Positions 14,311 to 44,084 of a stretch of 64,000 nt of DNA are shown here, piece after piece. The notes under the pieces were generated by a model. It was not told where the DNA came from. It worked only from the letters and a program-made list of their open reading frames with translations, and did no database searches. The stretch's first letter is position 1. Every line of letters starts with the position of its first letter. Source of the DNA: a virus (Duplodnaviria; Caudoviricetes); the IMG/VR virus record IMGVR_UViG_3300021964_009400. One strand, 5' to 3'. The position numbers and the translations under genes were made by a program.

Positions 14311-14329
14311 CAAATATAAATTTCAAAAT

Positions 14330-24444: not shown

Positions 24445-25440
24445 ATGAGTAAATTATTCCAAGAAAGAATCCCTTTCAAACCATTCGAATATCCAATCTA
24501 CTATACAGAAGGTTGGTTGAAACAGGCACAAGCATTTTGGCTCCATACTGAGATACCCATGCAAATGGATGTTAAAGATTGGAACGAAACACTTACACCT
24601 GCAGAAAAGAATTTGGTTGGAAATATCTTACTTGGATTTGCTCAAACCGAATGTGCAGTTTCTGATTATTGGACTAACATGGTAACCAAGTGGTTTCCTA
24701 AACATGAAATCAGACAGATGGCTATGATGTTTGGTTCACAAGAAACTATTCACGCTACAGCTTATTCATATCTAAATGAGACATTAGGATTAGAAGATTT
24801 CTCGGCATTTTTGCACGAACCTGCAACTGCTGAGAAATTTGAACTCCTAACTTCAACAACGGCTGATTGGACACATGAAGATTTACAAACCAACGAAAAG
24901 GCAAGACAAGAAGTTGGTAGAAGTTTAGCAATCTTTTCAGCATTCGCAGAAGGAGTTAGTTTATATTCTTCTTTTGCGGTACTTTACTCATTTCAAATGA
25001 GAAACAAACTTAAAGGTATTGGACAACAAATGAAGTGGAGTGTAAGAGATGAATCTCTACATTCTCGTATGGGTTGTCAATTGTTCAGACATATGTGTGA
25101 TGAATATCCAGAATTGTTAGAACAATGTAAAAATTCAATAGAAGAAGCATCTAAACTGATTATTGATTTAGAATGTAACTTTATTGATAAAATGTTCGAA
25201 ATGGGTGATTTAGAAAATCTTGAAAAAGATGATTTAAAAGAATTCATTAAAGATAGAACAAATCAAAAATTACAAGAATTAGGATACGAACCAATTCATG
25301 AATTCAATAAAAAGAAATCAGAAAAGTTAGAATGGTTCTATCATCTTACAGGTGGTCATACTCACACCGATTTCTTTGCTATTAGACCTACCGATTATTC
25401 TAAGGCAAATGAAGGTGAAGATTGGGATGACTTATTTTAA
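24445..25440 (+). CDS. nrdB: Ribonucleotide reductase class Ia beta subunit
   Basis: FAQTE, ETIHATAY, FAEGVSLYSSF, RDESLH di-iron motifs. Confidence 0.95.
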   Translation: MSKLFQERIPFKPFEYPIYYTEGWLKQAQAFWLHTEIPMQMDVKDWNETLTPAEKNLVGNILLGFAQTECAVSDYWTNMVTKWFPKHEIRQMAMMFGSQETIHATAYSYLNETLGLEDFSAFLHEPATAEKFELLTSTTADWTHEDLQTNEKARQEVGRSLAIFSAFAEGVSLYSSFAVLYSFQMRNKLKGIGQQMKWSVRDESLHSRMGCQLFRHMCDEYPELLEQCKNSIEEASKLIIDLECNFIDKMFEMGDLENLEKDDLKEFIKDRTNQKLQELGYEPIHEFNKKKSEKLEWFYHLTGGHTHTDFFAIRPTDYSKANEGEDWDDLF

Positions 25441-25454
25441 ATAAATAATAGATT

Positions 25455-27239
25455 ATGGCAAGTAAAAACTATGGCGAAGAGCTAGGGTGGGAAATTGATG
25501 TTGATTTTCCATCATGGGGTAACACAGAGATATATGTAAAAACTATATCTAAAGGATATTTACTTCCTGGTGAAAAACCTAAAGATGCTTATTGGAGAGT
25601 TGCAACAAGAGTTGCTCAAAGATTAGGTAAACCTCAAATGGCAACTAAGTTCTTCGATTATATTTGGAAAGGTTGGTTGAATTTAGCAACACCAGTTCTT
25701 TCTAATACTGGTACTGATAGAGGATTACCTATATCTTGTTTTGGTATCGATGTTGCCGATTCGATTTATGATATTGGTAAAAAGAATTTAGAACTAATGT
25801 TACTTGCAAAACATGGAGGTGGAGTTGGTATTGGTGTGAACCAAATTAGACCAGCAGGAGCAACCATTACAGGCAATGGAACATCTGATGGTGTTGTACC
25901 ATTTTGTAAAATATATGATTCTACAATCCTTGCTACAAACCAAGGTTCAGTAAGAAGAGGTGCTGCTTCAGTTAACCTTAATATTGAACACAAAGACTTT
26001 GAAGAGTGGTTAGAAATTAGAGAACCTAAAGGAGATGTAAATAGACAATCACTAAATCTACACCAATGTGCAGTTGTAGGTGATAAGTTTATGAGAAAAC
26101 TCGAACAAGGTGAACCAGAAGCAAGAAGAAAGTGGGGAAAATTACTACAAAAAAGAAAAGCAACTGGTGAACCTTATATTATGTTTAAGGGCAATATAAA
26201 CAAACAAAACCCTCAAATGTATAAAAAGAATGGATTAAAAGTTCATATGACAAATATTTGTTCTGAAATTACATTACATACAGATGAGAACCATTCATTT
26301 GTTTGTTGTTTATCTTCAATCAACTTAGCAAAATATAATGAGTGGAGAGATACTGATTTAATTTATACTGCAACTTGGTTCTTAGATGGTGTATTATCCG
26401 AATTTATTCAGAAAGCAAAAAACATGAGAGGATTCGAAAATTCAGTTGCATCTGCTGAAAAGGGTAGAGCATTAGGATTAGGAGTTTTAGGTTGGCATAC
26501 TTACTTACAACAAAGAGGTATTCCATTTGAAGGAATGGAAGCACAATTCGAAACTCGTAAAATCTTTTCACAAATTAAAATCGAATCAGATAGAGCTTCA
26601 AGAGATTTAGCAACAGAATATGGTGAACCTCTTTGGTGTAGAGAAAGTGGATTTAGAAATACTCACCTTAGAGCAGTTGCTCCAACAGTTAGTAACTCTA
26701 AATTAGCTGGAAATGTATCTGCTGGTATCGAACCTTGGGCGGCGAATATATTCACCGAACAAACTGCAAAGGGAACTTTTATTAGAAAGAATACAGAGTT
26801 GGTAAAGATATTGAGAAAAGCAGGTATCAATAATAAAGAAACTTGGGATAAGATTTTAGAAGATGGAGGTTCAGTACAAGATATCAAAGAATTAGATAAG
26901 TGGTGTTACTTAGATGGTAAAATAGTTCTTTGTAAAGATATCACTAATGGTGATAGAGAAAAAATCTACCCTGTCAAGGATGTGTTCAGAACATTCAAAG
27001 AAATAAATCAAATGGACTTGGTTAAACAAGCTGGTGTTAGACAACAGTACATTGACCAAGGAGTTTCATTAAATCTTGCATTCCCTTCGATTGCAACACC
27101 GAAGTGGATTAATCAAGTTACATTAGAGGCTTGGAAACAAGGAATTAAAACTCTATATTATATGAGAACTGAATCAGTTCTTAGAGGAGATATCGCAACA
27201 AGAGCGGTAGACCCTGATTGTGTTGCGTGTGATGGTTAA
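25455..27239 (+). CDS. nrdA: Ribonucleotide reductase class Ia alpha subunit (no ATP cone)
   Basis: ATPVLSN, ISCF, TNICSEI, APTVS, KTLYY, C-terminal CVACDG. Confidence 0.95.
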   Translation: MASKNYGEELGWEIDVDFPSWGNTEIYVKTISKGYLLPGEKPKDAYWRVATRVAQRLGKPQMATKFFDYIWKGWLNLATPVLSNTGTDRGLPISCFGIDVADSIYDIGKKNLELMLLAKHGGGVGIGVNQIRPAGATITGNGTSDGVVPFCKIYDSTILATNQGSVRRGAASVNLNIEHKDFEEWLEIREPKGDVNRQSLNLHQCAVVGDKFMRKLEQGEPEARRKWGKLLQKRKATGEPYIMFKGNINKQNPQMYKKNGLKVHMTNICSEITLHTDENHSFVCCLSSINLAKYNEWRDTDLIYTATWFLDGVLSEFIQKAKNMRGFENSVASAEKGRALGLGVLGWHTYLQQRGIPFEGMEAQFETRKIFSQIKIESDRASRDLATEYGEPLWCRESGFRNTHLRAVAPTVSNSKLAGNVSAGIEPWAANIFTEQTAKGTFIRKNTELVKILRKAGINNKETWDKILEDGGSVQDIKELDKWCYLDGKIVLCKDITNGDREKIYPVKDVFRTFKEINQMDLVKQAGVRQQYIDQGVSLNLAFPSIATPKWINQVTLEAWKQGIKTLYYMRTESVLRGDIATRAVDPDCVACDG

Positions 27240-27258: not shown

Positions 27259-27522
27259 ATGATAACAGTAAAAAAATTCTACGCAGATTGGTGTGGTCCA
27301 TGTAAAATGTTAACACCAATTATGGAACAAGTTAAAGGAAAGTTTTCAACAATCAATTTTGAAGATATTGATATTGATTCACAATTTGAAGTTGCACAAA
27401 AGTATTATGTAAGGTCAGTTCCTACGGTAATTATCGAAAAAAATGGTGAAGAAATTCAAAGATTCGCAGGATTACAATCAGAATTGGCATACACAAATGC
27501 ATTAAATGAAATCAACTCGTAA
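27259..27522 (+). CDS. trxA: Thioredoxin
   Basis: FYADWCGPCK, VRSVPT. Confidence 0.92.
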   Translation: MITVKKFYADWCGPCKMLTPIMEQVKGKFSTINFEDIDIDSQFEVAQKYYVRSVPTVIIEKNGEEIQRFAGLQSELAYTNALNEINS

Positions 27523-27694
27523 TATTCTTAGAGGAGAATCGCATCCAAGAGCAAAACTAAACAATCAACAAGTATATCAAATACGAGATTTATACGAAAA
27601 AGGATTTAGTTCTAATATAATTGCAAGGAATTTTCATATAAGTCCTTGGAATGTAGAAGAAATTGGTAAAAGAAAAACTTGGAAACACTTGTAA
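27506..27694 (+). CDS. Stand-alone HTH of the type found at HNH homing-endonuclease C-termini
   Basis: RGESHPRAKLNNQQVYQIR...IARNFHIS; no HNH core. Confidence 0.55.
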   Translation: MKSTRNILRGESHPRAKLNNQQVYQIRDLYEKGFSSNIIARNFHISPWNVEEIGKRKTWKHL

Positions 27695-27719
27695 AATTCA
27701 AATATTTTTCGTATATTTG
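27688..27719 (+). promoter_or_regulatory. Bacteroidota-type promoter heading the putative modification operon
   Basis: CTTG-N20-TATATTTG. Confidence 0.75.
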
Positions 27720-27741
27720 TATAAACTTAAATTAATAATAT

Positions 27742-27978
27742 ATGGCAGGAATAAAATTTATCCACACAGATGATAAAGAAGTAGTAATAAAAGGGACTCC
27801 AAATGTTCCAATTAACAAAAGTAAAAAACTTAATAGTATAGATGGTTCAGAAAGTTTATTTTATATTGAAACTGAAACGGCATTTAAAATGAAATTAGAT
27901 TCAAAAGTAGATTTTTCTAAAAAACATCCACAAGATGATAACTTTTCGTTAATTACGATTCCAATTAACAGAATTTAA
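27742..27978 (+). CDS. Hypothetical protein
   Basis: 78 aa; first gene after the promoter. Confidence 0.65.
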   Translation: MAGIKFIHTDDKEVVIKGTPNVPINKSKKLNSIDGSESLFYIETETAFKMKLDSKVDFSKKHPQDDNFSLITIPINRI

Positions 27979-27979
27979 T

Positions 27980-28678
27980 ATGACGGTTATAGAAGCAACC
28001 TCTCCAGGTGATGCTTGGGTAAAAGTATCGAAGCATTTATTAGAAAATGGAGTAAAGGTAGGAAATCTTACAGAAGAACTCAATGTAGTTACTGAAATTA
28101 CAGAATTCAAATCAGATGATTGGTTTGATGGTCACTTCAGAGAAATAATGGGTGATGATAGAATTGATTTTGCTAAGACAGTAACCTTTCTTAAACCAGA
28201 ACAAAAGAAATCAGATAATCCATTTTTTGAAGCAGAAAAAGGATTGGATTATAAATTCATTAAAGACCATTATCATCAATCTTATTGGGGTAGAATGGTT
28301 AGTTGGAGAGGTGAATTCAATCAAGTTGAAAATGTAATTAAGATTTTAAGTAGAGGACAAGCAGTAAAAAGATGTGAACTTATTATCTTTGACCCTACTA
28401 AAGATGCAAGGAACCCTTATTCTCAACCTTGTATGTGTATGATTGATTTAAAACCAAGAAATGGTAAATTATATCTCACATCAATACTTCGTTCAAACAG
28501 AGTATCGAAATCAGGTTATGCAGATTATACTGCATTAACAGAAATGGGACATTTCCTTGCTGAACAAAGTGGATTAGAATTAGGAAAAGTAACTACACTT
28601 GCTTGTTCATGTCACATCGGTGATATGGATAATGAAAAAAAGAAAACAATTAAATTGTTAGAAGTATTAGGTAAATGA
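27980..28678 (+). CDS. Divergent thymidylate-synthase / dCMP-hydroxymethylase-family protein
   Basis: SYWGRM..W..NQVENVIKIL, catalytic PC (QPCMC), LYLTSILRSN...ADY, SCHI. Confidence 0.8.
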   Translation: MTVIEATSPGDAWVKVSKHLLENGVKVGNLTEELNVVTEITEFKSDDWFDGHFREIMGDDRIDFAKTVTFLKPEQKKSDNPFFEAEKGLDYKFIKDHYHQSYWGRMVSWRGEFNQVENVIKILSRGQAVKRCELIIFDPTKDARNPYSQPCMCMIDLKPRNGKLYLTSILRSNRVSKSGYADYTALTEMGHFLAEQSGLELGKVTTLACSCHIGDMDNEKKKTIKLLEVLGK

Positions 28679-29601
28679 AAGTACACAAATCATTTAAGTT
28701 TGAACCCAATCCAAAATGGGCATGGGATTTCAAAAAACTTTTATTAAATAGATTATCAGAAATACCAGATGATTATTCATTATCATTTTCTGCTGGTATA
28801 GATTCATCTATGTTATTATATGGTTTGATGGAGTTAGGTAAGAAACCATCTCAGTTACTTACATTTCAAGTAGAGAATCACGATACAAATGATTTAATTT
28901 ATTCTCGTAAGATTGCAAAAGGATATGGTATTCCATTACAAATTGTAAACATACCTAAAATAAATAAAGAAAGTGCATCAAAAATAATAAAAGATGTTAT
29001 TGATAGAATTGGAATATCAAGAAAAATAGATATTCAATGTTGTTATGCATATTGGTATATGTTGCATTATATTTCGACTCAACATTTAGTTGCTGGATTA
29101 TATGAGGATGTTATATATGAAACGAATGCCAAATTAAGTATTAAATATAGAGATATGTTACGAGGTAATGTTACACGAGAAGAATTTGATAAACATTATA
29201 ATGACCATCGTAGAATGTGTTATGAAGATAAAAATTTTAATGGTAATGTTCATAATCATGTATCAATTAGAAAATACATAAATTCTTTTGGAGTTACTTT
29301 AGATACACCATTGCAGACAGAAAGTATTTACAAACATTTTCAGAATGTAAATTATGAACAAACTAATTTTAAATTTGAAGATGATAAAATAAAAGAAAAG
29401 AAAAAATGGTTTGTAACTGATGTATTATTTAAAGATGAATTTGAAAGATTTGGTAATGCAAAAAACAAATCTAACTTTCATACGAAAAAAGAAAAAGGAG
29501 ATATAAATACACTTCATTGTGAAATATTTGGAGTTGAAAAGAAACAACTTATATCTCATTACAATAAAATTAAAAACGAAGTGCAACACGAATGGTTCTA
29601 A
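28675..29601 (+). CDS. Asparagine-synthetase-like PP-loop ATP pyrophosphatase (synthetase domain only)
   Basis: LSFSAGIDSS PP-loop; AGLYED (GxGAD-like); GVTLDTPL; no N-terminal Cys-Ntn glutaminase domain. Confidence 0.7.
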   Translation: MKVHKSFKFEPNPKWAWDFKKLLLNRLSEIPDDYSLSFSAGIDSSMLLYGLMELGKKPSQLLTFQVENHDTNDLIYSRKIAKGYGIPLQIVNIPKINKESASKIIKDVIDRIGISRKIDIQCCYAYWYMLHYISTQHLVAGLYEDVIYETNAKLSIKYRDMLRGNVTREEFDKHYNDHRRMCYEDKNFNGNVHNHVSIRKYINSFGVTLDTPLQTESIYKHFQNVNYEQTNFKFEDDKIKEKKKWFVTDVLFKDEFERFGNAKNKSNFHTKKEKGDINTLHCEIFGVEKKQLISHYNKIKNEVQHEWF

Positions 29602-30437
29602 CTCCGATAGAAGAATACAAAATAAAAGGAAAGACAGTTCATGTCAAAAGAGATGATTTAGTTGGGGATGGTGTGAACTATCCACGATGGGCTAAGATTG
29701 AAGGTATTAGAAAGATTATAGAATCTGATTATATCGATAAATCAAAACCACTAACACATCTCTCAGTATATGGAAGTTGGACTGGTTGGACATTATCTAA
29801 GATGTGTAAAGAGTATGGTATTGAATTTATTTCATCTTATCCAAACTCTAAAACATATCCACCTCAGATATTAGAAATCATCAAAGGTAATGGTGCAACA
29901 TTGAATCCAATGAAACCAAATATGATGAAACTACTTGAAAATAAATTGGGTGGTATTGCAAAAAAGAATGGTTGGCAACAATTACCGTATGCTTTCAATC
30001 ACCCAGCATATATAAACTATATGCAAGATAGAATGAAACAAGTTTTGGAAAAAGAAGATTTTGACCATCTTGTTGTATCAATTGGAAGTGGTGTAACTGC
30101 ATCTGGTTTGATTAGAGAATTTTTACAATATAAAGATTGGAAAGATATTCTAAAAAATAAAAGACAAGTTCATACAGTTACAATGTCATCTCTTACATCT
30201 ACTCAAAAGATTTTAAATGAAAACAAAGCAGGTGATTTAAATAATATCCACATTTATAAATCAGAATATGATTTTGATGATTTTATGGATGAAGTTACAG
30301 ATTACCCATTTGATATGAATGAATTTTGGGAGCGTAAAATGTGGTGGTGGTTAGAAAATAACATAGAGAAATTAGATGGTAAGATTCTATTTTGGAATAT
30401 AGGTGGTTCTTATAGAAAATCATTAAACTTAAAATAA
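29592..30437 (+). CDS. PLP-dependent fold-type-II enzyme (ACC deaminase / D-cysteine desulfhydrase-like)
   Basis: LTPIE..VHVKRDD...AKIE (Schiff-base Lys), HLVVSIGSGVTASGL, ILFWNIG. Confidence 0.8.
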   Translation: MVLTPIEEYKIKGKTVHVKRDDLVGDGVNYPRWAKIEGIRKIIESDYIDKSKPLTHLSVYGSWTGWTLSKMCKEYGIEFISSYPNSKTYPPQILEIIKGNGATLNPMKPNMMKLLENKLGGIAKKNGWQQLPYAFNHPAYINYMQDRMKQVLEKEDFDHLVVSIGSGVTASGLIREFLQYKDWKDILKNKRQVHTVTMSSLTSTQKILNENKAGDLNNIHIYKSEYDFDDFMDEVTDYPFDMNEFWERKMWWWLENNIEKLDGKILFWNIGGSYRKSLNLK

Positions 30438-31684
30438 TGCACGGAGGAGAAGATTACTTTGAACAATTTTATGGAATGAAACCTTATTTAGAAATAAATG
30501 AGGAAGAATGGCAAAACATAAAAGATATGTACACCAAAGATGAAGTAAAGGAAAAACTTGCAGATTTATGCATGACATATCCTCTACCTTATCAGACAGA
30601 AAAATATACAGAAGATGATTGTAGAGCAGATTATTTTAAACTAAAAGGAATTCGTTGGAACGAATTATTGATAGAAGGAAAAGAATGGTTTCAAAGACAA
30701 TCACGAGAATCTAAATACCCACTAACTTATGAAGGTAAACCTCTTTTCTTTAAAAGATACAATGTAGGAAATCTTTCAAGTAATTGGTGGCAAGAAAAAA
30801 ATAGATGGTCAATATGTTCGAGTGGTTATCCAGGTCCAGCAAGGACATGGAGAACAAGAGCATTTATGGTTACTTTAATGGGTGCTGCATATAGTTTGAA
30901 GTTAGATAAAATTGGAAAGAAAGAATTAAGATTAATGATTTCACTTCGTAAATATATTGCATCTCAACACAAACCAAATGTCACTAAATGTTTAACAGAA
31001 TTTTTTGGTTCTGAGACCATGTTAGATTTTTCCGCTGGTTGGGGAGACCGTTTATCGGGTGCTTGTGCTAGTTCAACTGTAAAACATTATGTTGGAATAG
31101 ACCCTCGTAAAGAAAATCATCCTATTTATGAACAACAAAGAGATTTTTATCAAAAACACACTTCTTTCTTTGAAAATCCAACAAAGGTAGATTTACATCA
31201 ATCACCAGCAGAAGATTTTAATTATTGGGAATACCAAGATTATTTTGATTTGGTTTTCACTTCTCCTCCTTATTTTAATGTGGAACGATATGGTGAAGAT
31301 GATACTCAAAGTTGGATAAGATATAAATCAATCCAAGCATGGAATGAATATTTTCTTCACAAAGCATTAGAAAAAATTATACCAACACTTAAAAAAGGTG
31401 GTAAGATAGCAATCAATATTGCAGATGTATATACAAGTGGAGGTGGTGGTGGAAAAGATTGGAAAGAAATAACACAACCAATGTGTGAGTTTTTAGAATC
31501 TAAAGGATTAACATATAAAGGATGTATCGGTATGGAAATGGCAAAAAGACCAAATAGTGGTGGGGCAGGTACTGTAAAAGCATCAGAACACAATGAAAAA
31601 CAATATAAAGAAGAAACCTTGAAAAGTTCAGAAGAAAATCAAGATAAAACTTTTTGTGAACCAATTTGGATATTTGAAAAATGA
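30437..31684 (+). CDS. SPPY-type SAM-dependent amino-methyltransferase (viral family)
   Basis: LRKYIASQHKP, MLDFSAGWGDR (motif I), FTSPPYF (motif IV), EPIWIF. Confidence 0.8.
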   Translation: MHGGEDYFEQFYGMKPYLEINEEEWQNIKDMYTKDEVKEKLADLCMTYPLPYQTEKYTEDDCRADYFKLKGIRWNELLIEGKEWFQRQSRESKYPLTYEGKPLFFKRYNVGNLSSNWWQEKNRWSICSSGYPGPARTWRTRAFMVTLMGAAYSLKLDKIGKKELRLMISLRKYIASQHKPNVTKCLTEFFGSETMLDFSAGWGDRLSGACASSTVKHYVGIDPRKENHPIYEQQRDFYQKHTSFFENPTKVDLHQSPAEDFNYWEYQDYFDLVFTSPPYFNVERYGEDDTQSWIRYKSIQAWNEYFLHKALEKIIPTLKKGGKIAINIADVYTSGGGGGKDWKEITQPMCEFLESKGLTYKGCIGMEMAKRPNSGGAGTVKASEHNEKQYKEETLKSSEENQDKTFCEPIWIFEK

Positions 31685-31857
31685 TAGAATTTTTTAGACA
31701 TATATTTGGATTATGTGGTGAACACTTTCACCCTAATATTTGGACTGCAATGGCAAGTTCACCTTTTATCGTAGCAACAATACATTATATTAAATGTAAA
31801 TGTGGTGGTTGGTTTACTCATAAAAAAGATTGTAAAAATTTGGATAATTCAAAATAA
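31681..31857 (+). CDS. Small Cys/His-rich hypothetical protein (58 aa, not in ORF track)
   Basis: MIEFFRHIFGLCGEHFHPNIWTAMASSPFIVATIHYIKCKCGGWFTHKKDCKNLDNSK; ATGA overlap with the methyltransferase stop. Confidence 0.55.
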   Translation: MIEFFRHIFGLCGEHFHPNIWTAMASSPFIVATIHYIKCKCGGWFTHKKDCKNLDNSK

Positions 31858-31870
31858 TTTCGTATATTTG
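31839..31870 (+). promoter_or_regulatory. Bacteroidota-type promoter for the DNA polymerase
   Basis: TTTG-N20-TATATTTG. Confidence 0.8.
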
Positions 31871-31875
31871 TACTT

Positions 31876-34392
31876 ATGTATCAAAACATTTATTACCAGA
31901 GAGAAAAAAATCTAATCCACTTGTGGGATGACCAAAGAGGATATTCATCTTTTCCTTATACACGATATGCATACGAACCTGCTGAAAGAGGAGAATATAC
32001 TTCTATCTATGGAGATAAACTTACAAAGATTTACAAGTTTAAAAAAGATGATACAAACCTTTTTGAATCAGATGTACCAGAAACTACAAGAGCTTTAGTA
32101 GATTTATATTCGGATTCCGATGAACCATCTACTGGTCATGTAATTCTCACATACGATATTGAGTGTGAAATGGAAAGTGGATTACCAGACCCACAAGAAG
32201 CAAAAAATGAAATTACTTCTATTGCACTTCATGATTCAGCTACCAATCAATATTGGGTATTGGTTATGGATAAAGATAATATTCTTGAAGAAAAAACTAC
32301 TGATAAATGTATTGTAATTCCTTTCAGAGATGAAAGAGATATGTTGATGAAATATTTGGAATTATATGAGTATATCAACCCTTCAATAGTGACGGGTTGG
32401 AATATTGATTATTTCGATACACCAATGTTATATAACAGAATTAAAAGATTATTAGGACAAAGACAAGCAAATAGATTATCACCAATCGGACAGTGTTTCT
32501 GGTCACCTTATAGAAAAAGATATTTTATGGCAGGTGTATCTTATTTGGATTATATAACATTGTATAAGAAATTTAACTATGGTGAACTTCCAAATTATCG
32601 ATTAGATACAATAGGACAAATTGAATTAGGTAGAGGTAAGATTGAGTATCAAGGAAATCTTGACCAATTATTTAAAGAAGATATTGAAAAGTTTATTGAG
32701 TACAACTTAGTAGATGTTGAGTTGGTAGTTGAATTTGATAAAAAACTTCAGTTCATTGATTTATGTAGAGGTATTACTCATGCGGGTCATGTACCTTATG
32801 AAGATTTTGTTTATTCATCAAAATATCTCGAAGGTGCATTACTATCATTCCTTAGAAGAAAAAATTTAGTTGCACCAAATAAACCTGCTGATAGACAAGA
32901 GAGAATGCAGGCGATTAGAGATAACAACGAAGAAAAGTTTATTGGGGCTTATGTAAAAGCACCAATCGTTGGAAAATATGATTGGGTATATGATTTAGAT
33001 TTAACTTCACTATATCCTTCAATCATTATGACTTTGAACATTTCACCAGAATCAAAGATTGGTAAGATTCAAGATTGGGATGCTAACAAGTTCGTTAAAG
33101 GTGAAGTTGATACTTATTATATCGGAGAGGATTCTATTTCAAAAGAAAACTTAAAAAAATACTTAGAACAATCAAAGTTTTCAGTTGCTTCTAATGGTGT
33201 TTTGTATAGAACTGATAAAGTTGGTTGTATACCTGATATTCTTAATCTTTGGTTTGACCAAAGAGTTGAGTTTAAAAATGAAATGAAAAAATATGGTAAA
33301 GCAGGTAATAAAGAAAAATATGCCTTTTACGCGAAAAGACAGTTGGTTCAAAAAATTCTACTCAACTCTCTTTATGGTGTTCTTGGTCTCCCTGCCTTTC
33401 GGTTCTATGATGTGGATAATGCGGAGGCAGTTACTACGACAGGTCAAACAGTTATTAAATCAACTGCGGATATGGGTAATATCAAATATAACAAAGAACT
33501 TAATACTCCTAATGCTGATTCTAACATTTATATTGATACTGATTCTGTATTCTTTTCCGCAGTTCCTTTGATGGACAAAAGAATCCCAAATTGGAAAGAA
33601 CAAGACCAAGATACAATTGCTGGTTATGTAAATGAGATTGCAGAAGAGATGCAAGATTACCTTAATGATTTCTACAATATACTTTCAAAAAAAGTTCTAA
33701 ATGTTGATAAAGATAAACATAGATTAGAGATTAAGAAAGAGTATGTTGCTAAAGCAGGATTGTGGATTGCAAAGAAAAGATATGCCCAATGGATTATTTC
33801 AGATAATGGTGTACCAGTAGATAAACTCGATGTAAAAGGTTTGGATGTTAAACGAAGTAGTTTCCCTAAGGCATTCCAAGAAATAATGGCAGATGTTCTT
33901 ATATCAATTCTAAGAGGACAATCGGAAGAAGAAATATCAGATAAAGTTTTGGCATTTAAAAAATCTATGATAAATCAAGATGTAGCTGTCATTGCAAAGA
34001 ATTCAGCAGTAAAAAATCTTAGAAAGTATATGCCAAAAGGTAAAAGAGAACGATTCTCTATAATGAAAGGAACACCTGCTCATGTTAAAGCTGCAATCCT
34101 TTACAATGATTGTTTACAACATTTTAATGCACCATTCAAATATGAACCAATGAAAAATGGTGATAAAGTAAAATGGGTTTACCTTAAAGATAATCCTCTT
34201 GGAATCGATGGATTAGCATTTACAGGTTATTCAGACCCACCAGAGATAGAAAAATTTATTCAAACTTATATTGACCACAATAAAATATTTGAAAGAGAAC
34301 TCAAACACAAACTACAAGATTTCTTCGATGCAATCGGTTGGGGAGATGTTGTGAGTGAACAAAGAACGGCTGAAAAGTTTTTTAGTTTTTAG
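31876..34392 (+). CDS. Family B DNA polymerase (T4 gp43-like)
   Basis: Exo TYDIECE and GWNIDYFD; DLDLTSLYPSII; KILLNSLYG; YIDTDS. Confidence 0.95.
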   Translation: MYQNIYYQREKNLIHLWDDQRGYSSFPYTRYAYEPAERGEYTSIYGDKLTKIYKFKKDDTNLFESDVPETTRALVDLYSDSDEPSTGHVILTYDIECEMESGLPDPQEAKNEITSIALHDSATNQYWVLVMDKDNILEEKTTDKCIVIPFRDERDMLMKYLELYEYINPSIVTGWNIDYFDTPMLYNRIKRLLGQRQANRLSPIGQCFWSPYRKRYFMAGVSYLDYITLYKKFNYGELPNYRLDTIGQIELGRGKIEYQGNLDQLFKEDIEKFIEYNLVDVELVVEFDKKLQFIDLCRGITHAGHVPYEDFVYSSKYLEGALLSFLRRKNLVAPNKPADRQERMQAIRDNNEEKFIGAYVKAPIVGKYDWVYDLDLTSLYPSIIMTLNISPESKIGKIQDWDANKFVKGEVDTYYIGEDSISKENLKKYLEQSKFSVASNGVLYRTDKVGCIPDILNLWFDQRVEFKNEMKKYGKAGNKEKYAFYAKRQLVQKILLNSLYGVLGLPAFRFYDVDNAEAVTTTGQTVIKSTADMGNIKYNKELNTPNADSNIYIDTDSVFFSAVPLMDKRIPNWKEQDQDTIAGYVNEIAEEMQDYLNDFYNILSKKVLNVDKDKHRLEIKKEYVAKAGLWIAKKRYAQWIISDNGVPVDKLDVKGLDVKRSSFPKAFQEIMADVLISILRGQSEEEISDKVLAFKKSMINQDVAVIAKNSAVKNLRKYMPKGKRERFSIMKGTPAHVKAAILYNDCLQHFNAPFKYEPMKNGDKVKWVYLKDNPLGIDGLAFTGYSDPPEIEKFIQTYIDHNKIFERELKHKLQDFFDAIGWGDVVSEQRTAEKFFSF

Positions 34393-36558: not shown

Positions 36559-38208
36559 ATGAAAAAGTATTTTTACGAAGTAAGTAAATTTTCCGAATAT
36601 AAATCCAATAAAACTTATCATCAGTTACTTCAAATGACTGATGATGAGTTTACTGATTGGGCAAAGTTGATTCGTAAAGATGTCATAGATGCTTGGGATA
36701 ATCATGGACAACCTCCTGTTAAAGGAAAAGATGAAAATCAGATTATTAATCACTTTGGTAAATTAAAAAATCATGATTGTGATTTTTTTACTAAAGATGA
36801 TAGTGATGATGAATCGTTGGGTATTCTTAAAAACTTTAATAAAAGTCAAAGTGTGGTAAATCAATTTTTCCCCACAATGTTAAAAACAAGAATATCAGAT
36901 GGTGCATCTGCAGAAGGTGGATTATCTATTTATGATTATTTTGCTGAAGATAGTTTAGCAGAAGCTTTTGTAAAGGTAATGAAAAGAGCCGTTAAGAGAG
37001 ATTCTATGTATGCTTGGTGTCGTTCATTAACAACTATTAAAGATGATAATCCTTTTTGGAATGGTCAAACACCATATAAGTTTATCAAAGATGTTCATGA
37101 TGGTAAAATATTTAAAGGAAAATGGGAAAAATATGATATTGTACTTTCAAAAACAACAGAACCTTCAATTAGAAAATATGGTCCTCTAAATGAAAATAAA
37201 CAAACATATGGAGTAATATTATTTTTACATGCTAAACAAGTAAAAAGATTAGTAAAAGAAGGATATTTAAATAAAGGTCATATTTCAAATCTTGGAGATA
37301 TTGAAGATTCAAGAACACAAAAAAATGGTAAAGTAGTAAAATACCTTTATAATATTAGATGGTACAATACAACTGAAGGTATTTTTCCTAAAATTCTGCA
37401 AGCTTTTAGATTAGGATTAGGACAACCAGCAGTAAACTTTCCTGCATTAACTGCTAAGTGGATTTACGAAAAATATACTGACCATATAGAAGAAGATGAA
37501 TCATTACACATTTATGATTCATCAGCAGGGTGGGGTGGTAGAATTATTGGTGCTATGAGTAGTAGAAAGAAAACTCATTATATTGGTACAGACCCTAATC
37601 CAGATAACTTTATTGATGATTTGGGTATTTCTAGATATGAATATATGGCAGATTATTATAATAAAAACTGTGTAGATACTCATTCAGATAAATTAACAAG
37701 TTTCTTTGAAGTAGAAAATCAAGGAAACACTTATGAATTGTTTCAAGATGGTTCAGAGCTAATTCACAAAAATCCAAACTTTCAAAAGTATAAAGGTAAA
37801 TTAGATTTATTCTTTACATCACCACCATACTTTAATAGAGAACAATATTCTCAAGATGAAAATCAATCGTTTAAAGCATATTCTCAATATGATGATTGGA
37901 GAGAAAACTTTTTAAAGCCTACTCTTACAACAATTTATGATTATATGAAAAGTGATAGATATATTCTTTGGAATATTGCATCAATTAAAATTAATAAGAA
38001 TACTTACTTTGATTTAGAAGGAGATTCTATTAAAATTCTAAAAGACCTTGGTGCAGAATATAAAGGTAAACTAAAAATGACAATGGCAGCTATGATTGGT
38101 GCTAATGTAAATAAAAGAGAATCAATTGAAAGTGGTATTAAAAACATGGTTCAAGTTGGAAGTACATGGTACAAATATGAACCTATATTCGTATTTTATA
38201 AAAAATAA
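36559..38208 (+). CDS. Large SPPY-type methyltransferase, paralogue 1
   Basis: AVNFPALTAKWIYE, IYDSSAGWGGR, FTSPPYFNREQY, YEPIFVF. Confidence 0.8.
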   Translation: MKKYFYEVSKFSEYKSNKTYHQLLQMTDDEFTDWAKLIRKDVIDAWDNHGQPPVKGKDENQIINHFGKLKNHDCDFFTKDDSDDESLGILKNFNKSQSVVNQFFPTMLKTRISDGASAEGGLSIYDYFAEDSLAEAFVKVMKRAVKRDSMYAWCRSLTTIKDDNPFWNGQTPYKFIKDVHDGKIFKGKWEKYDIVLSKTTEPSIRKYGPLNENKQTYGVILFLHAKQVKRLVKEGYLNKGHISNLGDIEDSRTQKNGKVVKYLYNIRWYNTTEGIFPKILQAFRLGLGQPAVNFPALTAKWIYEKYTDHIEEDESLHIYDSSAGWGGRIIGAMSSRKKTHYIGTDPNPDNFIDDLGISRYEYMADYYNKNCVDTHSDKLTSFFEVENQGNTYELFQDGSELIHKNPNFQKYKGKLDLFFTSPPYFNREQYSQDENQSFKAYSQYDDWRENFLKPTLTTIYDYMKSDRYILWNIASIKINKNTYFDLEGDSIKILKDLGAEYKGKLKMTMAAMIGANVNKRESIESGIKNMVQVGSTWYKYEPIFVFYKK

Positions 38209-39836
38209 TGAATTATTACTATCAAAGAAATAAGTTTATAAATTTTAAATCAAATATTCTTTTTCACGAATTACTTAATACTAATGATTTTGAATTTGAA
38301 GATTGGGCAAAAACTTTGCGTAAAGAAGTTACTGAACAATGGGATAGATTTGGAAATCCACCTGTTATAGGGAAAAATCATAGTGATATTATTTCATCAT
38401 TTAGTAAGTTAAAATCCAATGATTGTGATTTTCTTATTAAAGATAGTACAGATTCAGAATCTTTAGGTATTATCAAAAACTTCAATAAAGATGCAGCAGT
38501 TGTAAATCAGTTTTTTCCTACAATGTTAAAAACTAAAATATCAAGTGGTAAATCAGCTGAAGGAGGATTATCAATATATGATTATTTTGGTGACCCAACA
38601 ATGGAAGAACAATTTGTTAAGATTATGAAACGAGCAGTTAGACGAGATTCGATGTATGTTTGGTCTCGTTCACTTGTTAATAAGAAAACTGAAAATCCTT
38701 TTTGGAATGGACAGAGTGGATATGATTTTATCAAAGATGTTAAAGATGGAAAAGTATTTACAGGTAAATGGGAAAATTATGATATCTATTTAACTAAATC
38801 AAAGGATAGTACATTTGATAATTATGGAACATTCAATGATGATTATGTTGGATTTACAAACATATATCTTTCAGCAACTGAAGTAAATCAACTATTAGAT
38901 AAAGGTTACTTAAATTCAAGACAAGTTTCTAATATAGATAAAGTTGAAGATTCCTCAACTTCCAAAAGTGGTACCGTAACAAAGTATTCTTATATGGTTC
39001 GTTGGTATGATAAAACAGAAGGATTGTTTCCTAATATGTTGAGAGTAATACGATTGAGTTGTGGTCAAGCAGCAGTAAACTTCCCATCATTGACTGCAAA
39101 ATTTTTATATGAAAAATATACATCACATATTAAACAAGAAGAACCTTTGGTAGTTTATGATTCATCAGCAGGTTGGGGTGGTAGAATCATCGGAGCGATG
39201 AGTTCTCGTAAGAAAATTCATTATGTTGGTACAGACCCTAATCCTGATAACTATTTAAAAGAATTAAATAAATCTCGTTATGAATATGTAGCAGATTTTT
39301 ATAACAAAAATTGTATAGATAATCATTCAAATAAACTTACATCATTCTTTAATGTAGAAAAACAAGGTAATACTTATGAGTTATTCCAAGATGGTTCAGA
39401 GTTAATCTCAAATAATCCAAACTTTCAAAAGTATAAAGGTAAACTAGATATTGCATTTACTTCACCACCATACTTTAACAGAGAGCAATATTCACAAGAT
39501 GAGAAACAATCTTTTAAAGCTTATAGTGAGTATAAGGATTGGAGAGATAACTTCTTAAAACCTACTCTAACAACGATTTACGAGTATCTAAAGAATGATA
39601 GATATATCTTATGGAACATTGCCGATATAAAGATTGGAAAATCAATATATTATCCACTTGAACAAGATTCAATTGATATCTTAAATGGGTTAGGATGTGA
39701 ATACAAAGGTAAACTTAAAATGTTGATGACAAGGATGGTTGGGTTGGACCCATCTAAAAGTGGTATAAAGAACTCTGTCAAATATGGTGGGAAAGTATAT
39801 AAATTTGAACCAATATTTGTTTTTTATAAACCTTAA
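38208..39836 (+). CDS. Large SPPY-type methyltransferase, paralogue 2
   Basis: AVNFPSLTAKFLYE, VYDSSAGWGGR, FTSPPYFNREQY, FEPIFVF; colinear with paralogue 1. Confidence 0.8.
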   Translation: MNYYYQRNKFINFKSNILFHELLNTNDFEFEDWAKTLRKEVTEQWDRFGNPPVIGKNHSDIISSFSKLKSNDCDFLIKDSTDSESLGIIKNFNKDAAVVNQFFPTMLKTKISSGKSAEGGLSIYDYFGDPTMEEQFVKIMKRAVRRDSMYVWSRSLVNKKTENPFWNGQSGYDFIKDVKDGKVFTGKWENYDIYLTKSKDSTFDNYGTFNDDYVGFTNIYLSATEVNQLLDKGYLNSRQVSNIDKVEDSSTSKSGTVTKYSYMVRWYDKTEGLFPNMLRVIRLSCGQAAVNFPSLTAKFLYEKYTSHIKQEEPLVVYDSSAGWGGRIIGAMSSRKKIHYVGTDPNPDNYLKELNKSRYEYVADFYNKNCIDNHSNKLTSFFNVEKQGNTYELFQDGSELISNNPNFQKYKGKLDIAFTSPPYFNREQYSQDEKQSFKAYSEYKDWRDNFLKPTLTTIYEYLKNDRYILWNIADIKIGKSIYYPLEQDSIDILNGLGCEYKGKLKMLMTRMVGLDPSKSGIKNSVKYGGKVYKFEPIFVFYKP

Positions 39837-40062: not shown

Positions 40063-42771
40063 ATGAGAAATTTAATGTTAAGTCTGTTATTAGTTCTTGG
40101 AACAATGACAGCAACTTTTGCACAAATTAGTGGAAAAGTTTATGATGTAGAAACTAATGCTCCACTACCAGGTGCAACAATATTACATGAGGGAACATCT
40201 CATGGAACTGTGACTGGTTTTGATGGAACATTTATTTTCGATGTATCTCCAGGAACAACCCTTGTTGTTTCTTATTTAGGGTACGAAACTGCAGTAATTG
40301 AATCAAGTTCAGAAACAATCATTGGATTAGTTCCTGATTTAAATGTACTTGGTGAAGTTGTTGTAAGCTCTGGTGTAATTGATGTTGCAAAGGTGAGAGA
40401 AACACCAGTTGCAGTTTCAACTATTTCACCAGCAGAAATCGCACTCAAAGTAGGTAACCAAGAGTTTCCAGAGATTATGAATAGAACACCAGGTGTCTAT
40501 GCTACCAAACAAGGTGGTGGATATGGTGATTCGAGAATCTCTTTAAGAGGATTTGACCAAAGAAACACATCTTTCCTTATCAATGGGCAACCAGTTAACG
40601 ATATGGAAAATGGATGGGTTTATTGGTCTAACTGGCAAGGTTTAACAGATGTTGCAAGTGGTATCCAATTACAAAGAGGTTTAGGTGCTTCAAGATTAGC
40701 AGTACCATCAGTAGGTGGAACTGTATCAATCTTTACAAAAGCCGCTGAGGCAAGAGCTGGTAGTTCAGTTGCTCAATCATTTGGTAATGATGGGTATTTT
40801 AAAACTACTGTATCTCACTCAACTGGTTTAAATGATAATGGATGGGCTTCATCTTTCTTACTTTCAAGATGGGAAGGTGATGGATATATCTATAATACAA
40901 GTGGTGAGGGTTACACTTACTTCTTTGCATTAGGATATGCACCTGAAGATTCAGACCACTCAGTTAACTTTTCTTTCTTAGGTGCTGGTCAATGGCACCA
41001 CCAAAGAGATGTTTGGGTTTCTATTAGAGATTACCAAAACTTTGGTACTGAAGGAATTGATAGAAGATGGAACACTAATGGTGGTGTTTACCAAGGAGAA
41101 GAATATTCTTTAAGAAGAAACTTCTACAATAAACCATTAGCAACTCTTAACTGGGATTGGGATATTTCTGATAACCTTAAACTTGCAACATCATTATATG
41201 GTTCAGCAGGTAGAGGTGGAGGAACAGGTCCAAGAGGTAGAAACTACTACAACTCGGAAACTGATATCTTACCTTTCAGAAAAGACCTTACAGAACACTA
41301 CCTAGAAAATGGTAGAGGTTCAAGAACACCAGACGGATTTATTGATTTTGATGCAATTGTTGCTTATAACCAAGCTAGTACAGATGGTTATAGTGGTGAT
41401 TTACCATTCGGAGGTCAGTTAATTGCATCTAATGGATTTAAAAACGATGGTGTAAATAGAGCTGGTCTTATTAGAAGAGCATCTATGAACTCTCATGACT
41501 GGGTTGGAGCAATCTCTAATTTAGAATATGAAAGTGGAAATTGGAAAACTTCAATTGGTATCGATTTAAGAAATTATAAAGGATATCATTATAGAGTATT
41601 AAATGATTTATTAGGATTTGATGGTTATTACTCAACTGGTAATAAGAACTCAGCTGGACAAATCATCAATACTTTAGTTGAAGCATCTCCATTCAAAGAT
41701 ACAGGAATTAAAGGACCAAAAATCGATTACTATAATATTGGTAAAGTAGGTTGGCAAGGTGTAAATGGTTTAGTTGAATATAACAACTCCACTATTTCTG
41801 CAGTATTACAAGCAGGTTTATCTAATAAATCATTCCAGAGAATCGATTACTTCGACCAACCAGGTAACCCTGAATCAGATACAGAAAATGTAGGTGGTGG
41901 ATATGTAAAAGGTGGTGCAAACTATAATATTGATGATAGACAAAATGTATTCTTCAATGCTGGTTTCATCTCAAGACAACCAAACTTTGATGCAGTATTC
42001 CCTAACTATGCAAACAATGTTAATCCTGATTTACAAAATGAAGAAATTAAATCAATTGAAATCGGATATGGATTCATTGGTAATAACTTCAAAGCAAATG
42101 TAAACGCATACTCAACAGTATGGGGTAATAGATTTGTTTCAAGAAGTTTATCTAACCAACAAGGTGTAGATGGGTTTGCACAATTTAAAGATATCGATGT
42201 TGTACACAATGGTATCGAAGTTGAAGCAACTTATGACCCAACTTCTAACTTAAGATTAAAAGGTATGTTATCAATCGGTGATTGGAGATATACTAAAGAT
42301 TTTGATGCAGAGTTATTTGATGATAACCAACAATCAATCGGTACAGGTACACTTTACCTTAAAGATGCAAAAGTTGGTGATGCAGCTCAATTCGTTTCTT
42401 ACTTAGAAGCTGATTATAAATTAGGTAGTAAGTTAAATGTAGATTTAGGATATAGATTTGTAGATAATCTTTTCGCAGATTACTCAATTACTGATTCAGA
42501 ATTTACAAAACCTAATAATGCAGGTGCATTGAAGTTACCATCTTATGGATTAGTTGATTTAGGTTCAACACTTAGATTTAACTTATTCGGAAATGATACT
42601 TCATTCAGAGTAAATATCAATAACTTATTTGATACTTACTACATTGCTGAATCTAATTCTAACATCCATGCTTCTGCAGGTTCAGAAACTTGGAATGGAA
42701 TTGATACGAGAAACTCAGTATGGTTCGGATTCGGACGTACATTTAATGCTTCTCTTAAATACAGATTCTAA
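40063..42771 (+). CDS. Full-length TonB-dependent outer-membrane transporter (Bacteroidota type)
   Basis: Sec signal peptide; CarboxypepD_reg-like domain (LPGATI..GT..GTVTGFDG..SYLGY); TonB box LGEVVVS; plug (RETPVAVSTI, SLRGF, GASRL); beta-barrel ending SLKYRF. Confidence 0.92.
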   Translation: MRNLMLSLLLVLGTMTATFAQISGKVYDVETNAPLPGATILHEGTSHGTVTGFDGTFIFDVSPGTTLVVSYLGYETAVIESSSETIIGLVPDLNVLGEVVVSSGVIDVAKVRETPVAVSTISPAEIALKVGNQEFPEIMNRTPGVYATKQGGGYGDSRISLRGFDQRNTSFLINGQPVNDMENGWVYWSNWQGLTDVASGIQLQRGLGASRLAVPSVGGTVSIFTKAAEARAGSSVAQSFGNDGYFKTTVSHSTGLNDNGWASSFLLSRWEGDGYIYNTSGEGYTYFFALGYAPEDSDHSVNFSFLGAGQWHHQRDVWVSIRDYQNFGTEGIDRRWNTNGGVYQGEEYSLRRNFYNKPLATLNWDWDISDNLKLATSLYGSAGRGGGTGPRGRNYYNSETDILPFRKDLTEHYLENGRGSRTPDGFIDFDAIVAYNQASTDGYSGDLPFGGQLIASNGFKNDGVNRAGLIRRASMNSHDWVGAISNLEYESGNWKTSIGIDLRNYKGYHYRVLNDLLGFDGYYSTGNKNSAGQIINTLVEASPFKDTGIKGPKIDYYNIGKVGWQGVNGLVEYNNSTISAVLQAGLSNKSFQRIDYFDQPGNPESDTENVGGGYVKGGANYNIDDRQNVFFNAGFISRQPNFDAVFPNYANNVNPDLQNEEIKSIEIGYGFIGNNFKANVNAYSTVWGNRFVSRSLSNQQGVDGFAQFKDIDVVHNGIEVEATYDPTSNLRLKGMLSIGDWRYTKDFDAELFDDNQQSIGTGTLYLKDAKVGDAAQFVSYLEADYKLGSKLNVDLGYRFVDNLFADYSITDSEFTKPNNAGALKLPSYGLVDLGSTLRFNLFGNDTSFRVNINNLFDTYYIAESNSNIHASAGSETWNGIDTRNSVWFGFGRTFNASLKYRF

Positions 42772-43555: not shown

Positions 43556-44084
43556 TTTATTCGGTGGAGCAGGTATAGGTAAATCTTCAATAGCAAATGG
43601 GATTACTTATAAACTAAAAAAGAAACACATTAGTTGTAACAATCCATACGAATTTCCTAAAAGATTAGCTTGGGATAATAACATACCAGCAATATCAGAC
43701 CAACTTTATGTATTTGCAAACCAACATAGAGGAATAGCAGAATGTTATGGTAAAGTAGATTATATAGTAATTGATTCACCAATTTTATTTTCTACCATAT
43801 ATCACAGATATTATACACAAGGTTATCCTGCAAACTTTTACAGAGAATCTTTTCACAATTTAGTGATAGATTTACATAATCAATATGATAGTATTAACAT
43901 ACTTTTAGAACGAGGAGAAACAGTACATAATGATAAAGAAAGATTTCAAAACTATGAAGAAGCAGTTGCAATCGATTCATTGTGTAAACAAGTACTAGAA
44001 GAAAATAATGTTCCCTACCATACAATAAAGGTAGGTCCAAAATCAGTAAAAAAAATTATTAAATTATTAGGAAAATCCAAATAA
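43539..44084 (+). CDS. P-loop ATPase/kinase (AAA_28/NadR-like)
   Basis: INLFGGAGIGKS, YEFPK, IVIDSP. Confidence 0.7.
   Translation: MSKLINLFGGAGIGKSSIANGITYKLKKKHISCNNPYEFPKRLAWDNNIPAISDQLYVFANQHRGIAECYGKVDYIVIDSPILFSTIYHRYYTQGYPANFYRESFHNLVIDLHNQYDSINILLERGETVHNDKERFQNYEEAVAIDSLCKQVLEENNVPYHTIKVGPKSVKKIIKLLGKSK

Follow-up and report, generated by a model that had tools for sequence, protein, structure and literature searches.

The closest described relatives of the locus reported here are two phage DNA hypermodification systems and a group of cytidylate-specific enzymes. The thymidine hypermodification system of Pseudomonas phage M6 and Salmonella phage ViI comprises an amino-acid:DNA transferase (AADT; gp51), a pyridoxal 5'-phosphate (PLP) enzyme (gp52 in M6, gp226 in ViI), a radical S-adenosylmethionine (SAM) isomerase (gp53) and a 5-hydroxymethyldeoxyuridine (5-hmdU) DNA kinase (gp54) (PMC8989533). 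Within it, gp52 is a PLP decarboxylase of DNA-bound amino-acid:nucleobase conjugates and converts the C-alpha-linked glycine adduct of thymine in DNA to 5-(2-aminoethyl)uracil (PMC8989533). The CmoA/CmoX/CmoY system of Synechococcus phage S-B43 is directed at cytosine C5, and its amide ligase CmoY has been proven to couple glycine, in an ATP-dependent reaction, to 5-carboxymethylcytosine in DNA (PMC12783734). Cytidylate-specific homologues of thymidylate synthase (TS) are represented by T4 gp42, a dCMP hydroxymethylase, by the flavin-dependent 5-hydroxy-dCMP synthases RB69 gp48 and HY126 AfhB, and by MilA (PMC13326640; PDB 9iqu, 9iqc, 5jnh). The subject of the present study is a 64,000-nucleotide stretch of a tailed-phage genome (Duplodnaviria; Caudoviricetes), IMG/VR record IMGVR_UViG_3300021964_009400; the whole stretch is called the window, and all window searches cover these 64 kb of phage genome. 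An earlier note on this DNA had proposed that an operon encoding a TS homologue, a PP-loop ligase, a PLP enzyme and a methyltransferase hypermodifies DNA bases. From the computational analysis described below, the four genes and two further methyltransferase-like genes probably constitute a cytosine-directed phage DNA-hypermodification module. Its product is most likely a base carrying an amide and an amine, made by a route that matches no published pathway. The genes concerned are listed here, with the evidence for each in brackets; handles such as L081 denote loci of the survey described further below.

27980-28678, plus strand: TS homologue, 232 aa, predicted to modify deoxycytidine monophosphate (dCMP) at C5 (Pfam TS match, AlphaFold2 model, active-site residues)
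28675-29601, plus strand: predicted glutaminase-less PP-loop (AsnB/CmoY-like) ATP-dependent amide ligase, 308 aa (PP-loop motif, homology)
29592-30437, plus strand: fold-type II PLP enzyme of the M6 gp52 family, 281 aa (phrog_7093, gp52 alignment)
30437-31684, plus strand: SPPY methyltransferase-like protein, 415 aa (DxSxGWG and SPPY motifs)
36559-38208, plus strand: second SPPY methyltransferase-like paralogue of the same system, 549 aa (homology to the 415-aa protein and to a 539-aa gene of L081)
38208-39836, plus strand: third SPPY methyltransferase-like paralogue, 542 aa (tandem duplicate of the 549-aa gene)
43539-44084, plus strand: thymidylate-kinase-like P-loop protein, 181 aa, a tentative candidate for a deoxynucleoside monophosphate (dNMP) kinase (AAA_28, phrog_2107)

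With the M6/ViI system the locus shares a full-length homologue of gp52 in which the Schiff-base lysine is aligned. As in that system, a TS homologue would supply the C5 handle, and in related loci (L057, L079) a radical SAM enzyme accompanies the PLP enzyme. The target predicted here is cytosine (from Asp182) rather than uracil, the radical SAM family is of the B12 type, without detectable similarity to gp53, and the amide ligase and SPPY proteins, absent from M6, form part of the core. M6 gp51 and gp54 gave nothing under E = 1 when compared by tblastn with the window, and neither a 5-hmdU DNA kinase (5-HMUDK) nor an aGPT-Pplase-type amino-acid:DNA transferase Pfam family was found in any scanned open reading frame (ORF), which agrees with the absence of both activities reported in the earlier note. 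With S-B43 the locus shares the presumed target, cytosine C5, and an amide ligase of the AsnB superfamily of ~270-310 aa. It differs in lacking CmoA (the carboxy-SAM, or Cx-SAM, synthase) and CmoX (an SPPC C5-methyltransferase), the handle here coming, by prediction, from the TS homologue; its methyltransferase-like proteins carry SPPY (amino-methyltransferase type), not SPPC, and similarity to CmoY is low (23%, E 7e-4). By tblastn, S-B43 CmoA and CmoX had no significant match in the window, and neither was among the families common to related loci. Full-text literature searches returned no paper on this combination of enzymes, which the note had not recognised as a characterised pathway either. 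As phage pyrimidine hypermodification, the module mixes a gp52-type enzyme (thymine pathways) with a CmoY-type enzyme (carboxymethylcytosine) without the handle makers of either pathway. It adds a dedicated SPPY family around a TS homologue that lies outside the three characterised product classes.

The enzymes of the module

The folds originally ascribed to the four enzymes were borne out by PHROGs, by profile and structure searches and by pairwise homology to characterised phage enzymes, Pfam matches being weak. The TS homologue scored just above the threshold of Pfam PF00303 (27.1 bits, cut-off 24.3) and was nearer by sequence to methanogen-type TS (TIGR03283; 77 bits, far under the cut-off) than to the cytidylate-specific enzymes. 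An AlphaFold2 model built from a 43-sequence alignment had a pLDDT (predicted local distance difference test) of 94.9, and Foldseek with this model returned TS-family structures with E down to 1e-12. The top structural matches were the dCMP hydroxylase AfhB of phage HY126 (9iqu, 9iqc) and then the CMP hydroxymethylase MilA, with ordinary TS after them. A profile search of PDB sequences gave the same ranking, and the best sequence-level match was MilA, an enzyme of mildiomycin biosynthesis.

The active site was next examined in an alignment of 16 subfamily members with the real T4 gp42 and RB69 gp48 sequences. Pro150-Cys151 and Arg171-Ser172 are invariant and align with both phage enzymes; Cys151 occupies the position of the catalytic C146 of ThyA, Arg171-Ser172 those of R166 and S167, and Lys130 is conserved alongside this phosphate-binding pair. 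Asp182, also invariant, stands at the position of ThyA N177, the cytosine determinant, from which the target is predicted to be cytosine. The fold, the cysteine, the Arg-Ser clamp and the aspartate at N177 are shared with gp42, gp48, AfhB and MilA, whereas the window protein differs from them at D169, at L143 and in the H-x-Y sugar-motif tyrosine, which is lost, and has an invariant subfamily motif of its own, SK[SA]GY[AG]D, containing Lys177 and Tyr180. At the D169 position the window protein has Arg174, and the 16 sequences have Arg or Ala and never Asn, while T4 gp42 has Asp and 5-hydroxy-dCMP synthase Asn. At the L143 position it has Ser148; most members have Gly, others Arg, Leu or Lys, none an acidic residue, while T4 gp42 and 5-hydroxy-dCMP synthase carry Asp or Glu.

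D169 together with L143D/E marks folate-dependent hydroxymethylases, and D169N marks flavin-dependent 5-hydroxy-dCMP synthases (PMC13326640). Of the signature of a folate-dependent dCMP hydroxymethylase such as T4 gp42, the N177D element is present, but D169 and the acidic L143 are not; the D169N signature of the flavin-dependent class is absent too, though AfhB is the top structural match. Judged by these residues, the active site fits none of the characterised product classes. The assignment of the TS homologue to C5 modification of a pyrimidine, made in the earlier note, stands, with none of the known product signatures attached. The C5 substituent is probably not a plain methyl, hydroxymethyl or hydroxyl group, since the protein differs in all the residues diagnostic of the three enzyme classes concerned. 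A tentative idea, with a fair though less than even chance, is that the protein represents a fourth TS-superfamily chemistry that puts a carboxyl- or amino-acid-bearing group directly on dCMP C5, in which case the base would be new. Possible routes would be an exocyclic methylene trapped by an amino acid, or a C5 carbanion reacting with CO2 or an oxo-acid.

The ligase carries the PP-loop motif SFSAGIDSS, which is conserved in 12 homologues, and is below the Pfam cut-off for Asn_synthase (16.6 bits, cut-off 21) and for QueC. By tblastn it matched gp67 of Staphylococcus phage vB-SscS-F1 (E 1.4e-17) and CmoY of S-B43 (E 7e-4, 23% identity); a PDB profile search gave marginal matches only. The gp67 gene (271 aa) lies between genes for a CmoA-like methyltransferase and a C5 cytosine methyltransferase, and cmoY of S-B43 stands in the same gene arrangement. 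On this homology the protein is an AsnB/CmoY-type ATP-dependent amide ligase, in keeping with the AsnB-like PP-loop ligase of the earlier note. A natural gene swap bears on its product. In the collinear sister contig L028, in which the TS, PLP and methyltransferase proteins are 95.7%, 87.9% and 93.0% identical to those of the window, a 501-aa AsnB occupies the exact slot of the 308-aa ligase, and the blastn breakpoints at 28669 and 29592 coincide with the gene borders. The two proteins are only 22% identical. The 501-aa AsnB has GATase and Asn_synthase domains, starts with MCGI, retains the nucleophilic cysteine and fills the slot in most relatives as well; the 501-aa relatives score 288 bits against an NCBIfam cut-off of 267 for glutamine-hydrolysing asparagine synthase. 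Since ligase and AsnB replace each other between near-identical neighbours, they probably yield one and the same product, a primary amide formed with ammonia; the intact glutaminase nucleophile of the L028 AsnB likewise makes ammonia the probable amine. A primary amide is also the predicted product of a glutaminase-bearing ligase cluster (PMC12783734). We regard the primary amide as the moderately likely product, and the attachment of an amino acid or amine, which the earlier note had favoured, as unlikely. The simplest reading is that ammonia is used free in the window phage and derived from glutamine in most relatives.

Three other interpretations of the PP-loop protein were set aside. A QueC or 7-deazaguanine role was rejected because the match is confined to the PP-loop motif and the gene is interchangeable with AsnB; Que or DpdA families did not turn up in the scanned ORFs. 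Thiolation by the PP-loop protein together with a desulfhydrase-like PLP enzyme was rejected because the ligase lacks an invariant cysteine pair (Cys123 is Asn in two of the 12 aligned homologues, P0029 and P0033) and the swap partner is a glutamine amidotransferase. A TS-AsnB fusion in L069 was dropped as evidence of channelling, since its junction removes the N-terminal cysteine of the glutaminase and looks like a deletion. The modules are mosaic beyond the ligase slot: among contigs with TS 77-96% identical, the PLP genes fall into score classes of ~530, 460 and 300 bits.

The PLP enzyme matched phrog_7093 over its full length (E 7e-19) and Pfam PALP below the cut-off, while its PDB sequence matches were weak and were to cysteine synthases. 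It aligned end to end with M6 gp52 (YP_001294560) over 284 columns, with 27% identity and E 6e-22, and its invariant Lys35 aligns with the Schiff-base Lys36 of gp52. By sequence it is a member of the M6 gp52 / ViI gp226 family, so that the assignment to DNA hypermodification made before the comparison is supported by a proven relative. Whether it is a decarboxylase rather than an installer of a group is, in our estimate, evenly balanced.

In the 415-aa protein an N-terminal domain of ~190 aa is joined to a class I methyltransferase core, where DxSxGWG and SPPY are invariant; the class I fold carries both a motif IV of the type (S/D/N)PP(Y/F) and a motif I for SAM binding. Against Pfam N6_N4_Mtase (PF01555) the protein scored 25.6 bits, below the cut-off of 26.7, with a match confined to the motif IV region. 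Foldseek with the model returned generic class I methyltransferases only, a PDB profile search gave marginal matches only, and a structure search against representative chains contained no DNA methyltransferase among the 50 matches listed, which is not evidence of absence. The 549- and 542-aa proteins share its methyltransferase domain, the C-terminal domain of the former being 32% identical to the 415-aa protein. The 549-aa protein is also 61% identical over its full length to the product of the 539-aa gene of L081, whose end overlaps the start of the TS gene, and an SPPY gene of 539 aa has the same position and layout in most of L080-L095. For the 542-aa protein, identity is 64% with its 549-aa neighbour and 66% with the L081 protein. 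The two paralogues at 36559-39836 belong to the system, and the window has three SPPY genes; the module extends beyond the operon first delimited. The SPPY proteins, which number one to six per locus beside the TS subfamily, make up a single dedicated family marked by DxSxGWG and differ from each other mainly in their N-terminal domains. The methyltransferase credited in the earlier note with N-methylating the product is one of this family, and might methylate either N4 of the base or an amine of the side chain. Other methyltransferases in the window are of the DPPY and Eco57I types.

Co-conservation across viral lineages

IMG/VR was searched with alignments of the ligase and of the TS subfamily, and contigs from two large protein searches were added. 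The resulting ~80 non-redundant viral loci comprise 14 TS lineages at 70% identity, and their neighbouring genes were classified by hidden Markov models built from our own alignments. Co-occurrence in other phages had been named in the earlier note as the way to check its proposal, and the genes proved strongly co-conserved. The amide ligase was found in 12 of the 14 TS lineages; it adjoins the TS gene in most loci and lies a few genes away in L021, L022 and L074. An SPPY protein occurred in 10 of the 14, being missing only from three lineages seen solely on contigs of at most 8.6 kb (L024, L025, L073) and, within lineage 1, from L011 and L044/L045. The gp52-like PLP enzyme was present in six lineages and a B12-type radical SAM enzyme in eight, and in some loci (L057, L079) the two occur together. 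Unbiased clustering of all neighbours brought out no further common family except replication genes.

Contigs of 110-375 kb preserve the order TS-ligase-PLP, with the stop codon of one gene overlapping the start codon of the next, even where identity is down to 31-45%; in these contigs two to six SPPY paralogues flank the trio. In L011-L013 the trio is at a different place in a related genome, between two exonuclease genes. Two kinds of fusion, a TS-radical SAM protein of 676 aa (P0040/L021) and a radical SAM-methyltransferase protein of 801 aa (L074), tie parts of the module together. Among 185,579 prokaryote species, represented by one genome each, there was a single match, on a contig of a metagenome-assembled genome that has its own methyltransferase-TS-ligase-radical SAM module; the system is therefore viral. 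The module lies among replication genes in every lineage (ribonucleotide reductase, family B DNA polymerase (PolB), helicase, RecA, exonuclease). A blastn comparison of the operon with 50,697 phage records gave nothing useful. The nearest PolB is that of Microcystis phage Mel-JY01 (53%), and the module is not next to the Mel-JY01 polymerase.

Several of the related loci contain additional genes. In L003, a 94%-identical relative, a GroEL-like chaperonin gene (9767-11386) is inserted between the PLP and methyltransferase genes, and a gene for GmrSD_N plus an HNH nuclease, of a type that restricts modified DNA, precedes PolB (13244-14713). L011 has a Mom-family protein (PF25680; 7486-8283) and a SAM lyase-DUF3293 fusion (15639-16877) nearby, and inserted ORFs interrupt its genes for RecA and helicase. 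In L076 a TS-homologue ORF of 484 aa (8233-9687) carries N-terminal GIY-YIG and NUMOD3 homing-endonuclease domains, and is either a fusion or an endonuclease insertion that is read through.

Proposed pathway and rival explanations

The explanation of these data that we favour overall, and consider rather likely, is a four-step hypermodification of cytosine. In the first step, based on the fold and active-site residues of the modelled TS homologue, Cys151 would attack C6 of dCMP, Asp182 would recognise the 4-amino group, and a C5 substituent would be added before replication. A kinase, perhaps the product of the gene at 43539, would then act, and PolB would incorporate the modified nucleotide. 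The protein encoded at 43539-44084 matched Pfam AAA_28 and phrog_2107 'thymidylate kinase' (E 6e-13), and its gene is not adjacent to the module; its assignment as the dNMP kinase for modified dCMP is tentative. In the second step the PP-loop ligase, judging from its homology and the natural gene swap, would adenylate a side-chain carboxylate and form a primary amide. [quoted passage not shown] In the fourth, the motifs of the three SPPY proteins suggest N-methylation of N4 of the modified cytosine or of the side-chain amine. These proteins would probably act on DNA and in different sequence contexts, because they differ mainly in their N-terminal domains. The end result would be viral cytosines with an amide- and amine-bearing C5 side chain, blocking host nucleases. 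We lean slightly towards steps two to four taking place on DNA rather than on nucleotides; they are placed after replication because DNA is the substrate of the nearest characterised relatives that the ligase and the PLP enzyme have, and because the SPPY paralogues fit context-specific action on DNA.

A number of observations weigh against this scheme. The most direct is chemical: one carboxylate cannot serve both amidation and decarboxylation, so the linear four-step order written down in the earlier note does not close. Either the side chain must have two carboxylates, or the PLP enzyme must do something else, or the enzymes must act on different groups. The source of the carboxylate or amino acid is also a difficulty, since tblastn of the window detected no AADT, 5-HMUDK, CmoA or CmoX. 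With no evident supplier, the TS homologue would have to install more than a one-carbon unit, or the PLP enzyme would be the installer. No dCTPase was found among the scanned ORFs of the window. Pfam scores are marginal for all four proteins, and the structural matches of the methyltransferase are barely above generic class I methyltransferases. TS homologues are known only to act on mononucleotides, whereas CmoY and gp52 act on DNA, and the TS-radical SAM and radical SAM-methyltransferase fusions would more naturally suggest one common substrate level. Finally, in L011 no SPPY gene lies within 10 kb of the trio, and in L044/L045 the trio directly abuts PolB.

The conflict over the single carboxylate disappears if the pathway resembles diphthamide synthesis. 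Diphthamide is built by transfer of an amino-acid group, N-methylation and PP-loop amidation. In an analogous scheme the TS homologue would make 5-hydroxy- or 5-hydroxymethyl-dCMP, the PLP enzyme would install an alanyl group on the oxygen from activated serine by beta-replacement, the ligase would amidate the alpha-carboxylate and the SPPY proteins would N-methylate the alpha-amine. Each enzyme would be used once, one carboxylate would be enough, and the absence of an AADT and a kinase would be accounted for. Fold-type II PLP enzymes most commonly catalyse beta-replacement, the weak PDB matches of the PLP enzyme are cysteine synthases, and the dCMP hydroxylase AfhB is the top structural match of the TS homologue. 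Moreover, an adduct with this very shape, an O-seryl ether, is bound by gp226 of ViI, a relative of gp52 (PMC8989533). We nevertheless consider this scheme unlikely: the characterised members of the gp52 family are all decarboxylases, the TS homologue has neither the D169N of 5-hydroxy-dCMP synthases nor the acidic L143 of hydroxymethylases, the module has no serine-activating enzyme, and loci with a radical SAM enzyme instead of, or besides, the PLP enzyme would be left unexplained.

If, as the fusions suggest, the enzymes share one substrate level, the whole pathway could run on free nucleotides or nucleosides and yield a small molecule or a finished dNTP, as in MilA or bacimethrin-type pathways. 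TS homologues do act on mononucleotides, the phosphate-binding Arg171-Ser172 and Lys130 are conserved, and MilA is the best sequence-level PDB match. However, the module is virus-restricted and sits among replication genes in every lineage, its nearest characterised ligase and PLP relatives act on DNA, and one to six SPPY paralogues with varied N-terminal domains are hard to square with a single small substrate; we judge this account quite improbable. The notion that there is no joint pathway, and that an ordinary dCMP- or dUMP-modifying TS homologue, an asparagine synthetase and a PLP enzyme that are both metabolic, and ordinary m4C/m6A methyltransferases merely share an early-gene area, would accommodate the weak and generic Pfam matches, the asparagine synthase scores of the 501-aa relatives (288 vs 267 bits) and the many DNA methyltransferases that large phages often encode, the window with its DPPY and Eco57I types among them. 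It is very improbable in the face of a TS-ligase-PLP order with overlapping codons that persists to 31-45% identity at different genomic positions. A ligase next to TS in 12 of the 14 lineages, with no unrelated family in common, also counts against it, as do the dedicated DxSxGWG family beside the TS subfamily, the component fusions, and a PLP enzyme whose characterised relative modifies DNA and is not metabolic.

Setting of the module and its significance

At 27742-31857 on the plus strand, six co-directional ORFs of 78, 232, 308, 281, 415 and 58 aa follow each other with a 1-nt gap at the first junction and overlaps of 4, 10, 1 and 4 nt at the later ones. The four module genes are framed by the following features.

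27708-27721, plus strand: promoter-like motif TTCGTATATTTGTA at the start of the unit (exact copy, 34 nt before the first ATG)
27742-27978, plus strand: ORF78, small, facultative and outside the conserved module (no Pfam or PHROG match)
31681-31857, plus strand: ORF58, small, Cys/His-rich and facultative (no family match in Pfam or PHROGs)
31859-31872, plus strand: next copy of the promoter-like motif TTCGTATATTTGTA (4 nt upstream of the PolB start at 31876)

Because TTCGTATATTTGTA stands at both 27708 and 31859, the six ORFs are a single transcription unit running from one promoter-like motif to the next. ORF78 is present in L005 (64% identity) and ORF58 in L003, and both are missing from the collinear sister contig L028; they are therefore dispensable, and the conserved genes number four, not six. 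The promoter-to-promoter unit of six coupled genes described in the earlier note is thus upheld by the ORF calls and the motif, though its conserved content is smaller. The placement of the unit between nrdBA-trx and PolB was confirmed. Thioredoxin (27259-27522) and PolB (31876-34392) were identified by Pfam, and the ORFs at 24445-27239 are homologous to L011 genes that carry Ribonuc_red_sm and Ribonuc_red_lgC. A 62-aa ORF (27506-27694) overlaps the end of the thioredoxin gene, matches C-terminal parts of HNH/homing-endonuclease PHROGs and is probably a remnant or a small DNA-binding protein.

The 14-mer TTCGTATATTTGTA has five exact copies in the window, at 22709, 27708, 31859, 35766 and 45928, all on the plus strand and all between listed ORFs, upstream of the next plus-strand ORF; the copies at 27708 and 31859 were additionally checked directly in the sequence. 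Allowing up to three mismatches gave 39 matches against 23 expected, and 39 was reached in none of 100 shuffles. The exact copies stand upstream of early or replication genes, while near-copies, listed at 5504, 7012, 13181, 14299, 14801, 44087 and 48166, precede other genes. The motif contains TAnnTTTG, the Bacteroidetes -7 element, and looks like a phage early or middle promoter with that type of element. Together with a TonB-dependent transporter (40063-42771 on first reading), it points to a host in the Bacteroidota.

Elsewhere in the window, glycosyltransferases are encoded at 42824-43555, 49465-50880, 51151-52410 and 52958-53581 (GT2, two of the 'GT4 in conflict systems' type, GT1-like) among clamp-loader genes. 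They are followed, from 53880 up to 60598, by genes for an epimerase, a UDP-glucose dehydrogenase, a HAD plus nucleotidyltransferase protein, a cytidylyltransferase and a DegT aminotransferase. These genes might serve to glycosylate DNA or virion proteins. A uronic acid made by this sugar-nucleotide and glycosyltransferase island (49-64 kb, with UDP-glucose dehydrogenase) was considered as the source of the carboxylate and set aside, the island not being co-conserved in other lineages. A DUF1599 'nucleotide modification associated domain 1' protein (14330-14758) and a twitch-domain radical SAM protein by the clamp loader (46898-48139; NF033640, 321 bits), which is outside the B12-type family of the module, may each have a function in nucleic-acid modification.

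Hypermodification of phage DNA decides which restriction, CRISPR and other nuclease defences work, and enzymes used in epigenetic sequencing and DNA labelling have come from it; 5-carboxymethylcytosine and 5-hydroxycytosine, both new cytosine chemistries, were published in 2025-2026. The module described here is widespread in uncultivated large phages (~80 IMG/VR loci, 14 lineages). It contains informative natural swaps, of an ammonia-dependent for a glutamine-dependent ligase and of the PLP enzyme for a B12 radical SAM enzyme. With four genes it is compact and expressible in E. coli like the published systems, and offers a testable route to a new DNA base and possibly to a new TS-family reaction. 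If the TS homologue does belong to a fourth class, it would fold the known kinase-plus-transferase steps into one pre-replicative step, and the module would in that case build a cytosine bearing an amide and an N-methylamine at C5, for which there is no described counterpart.

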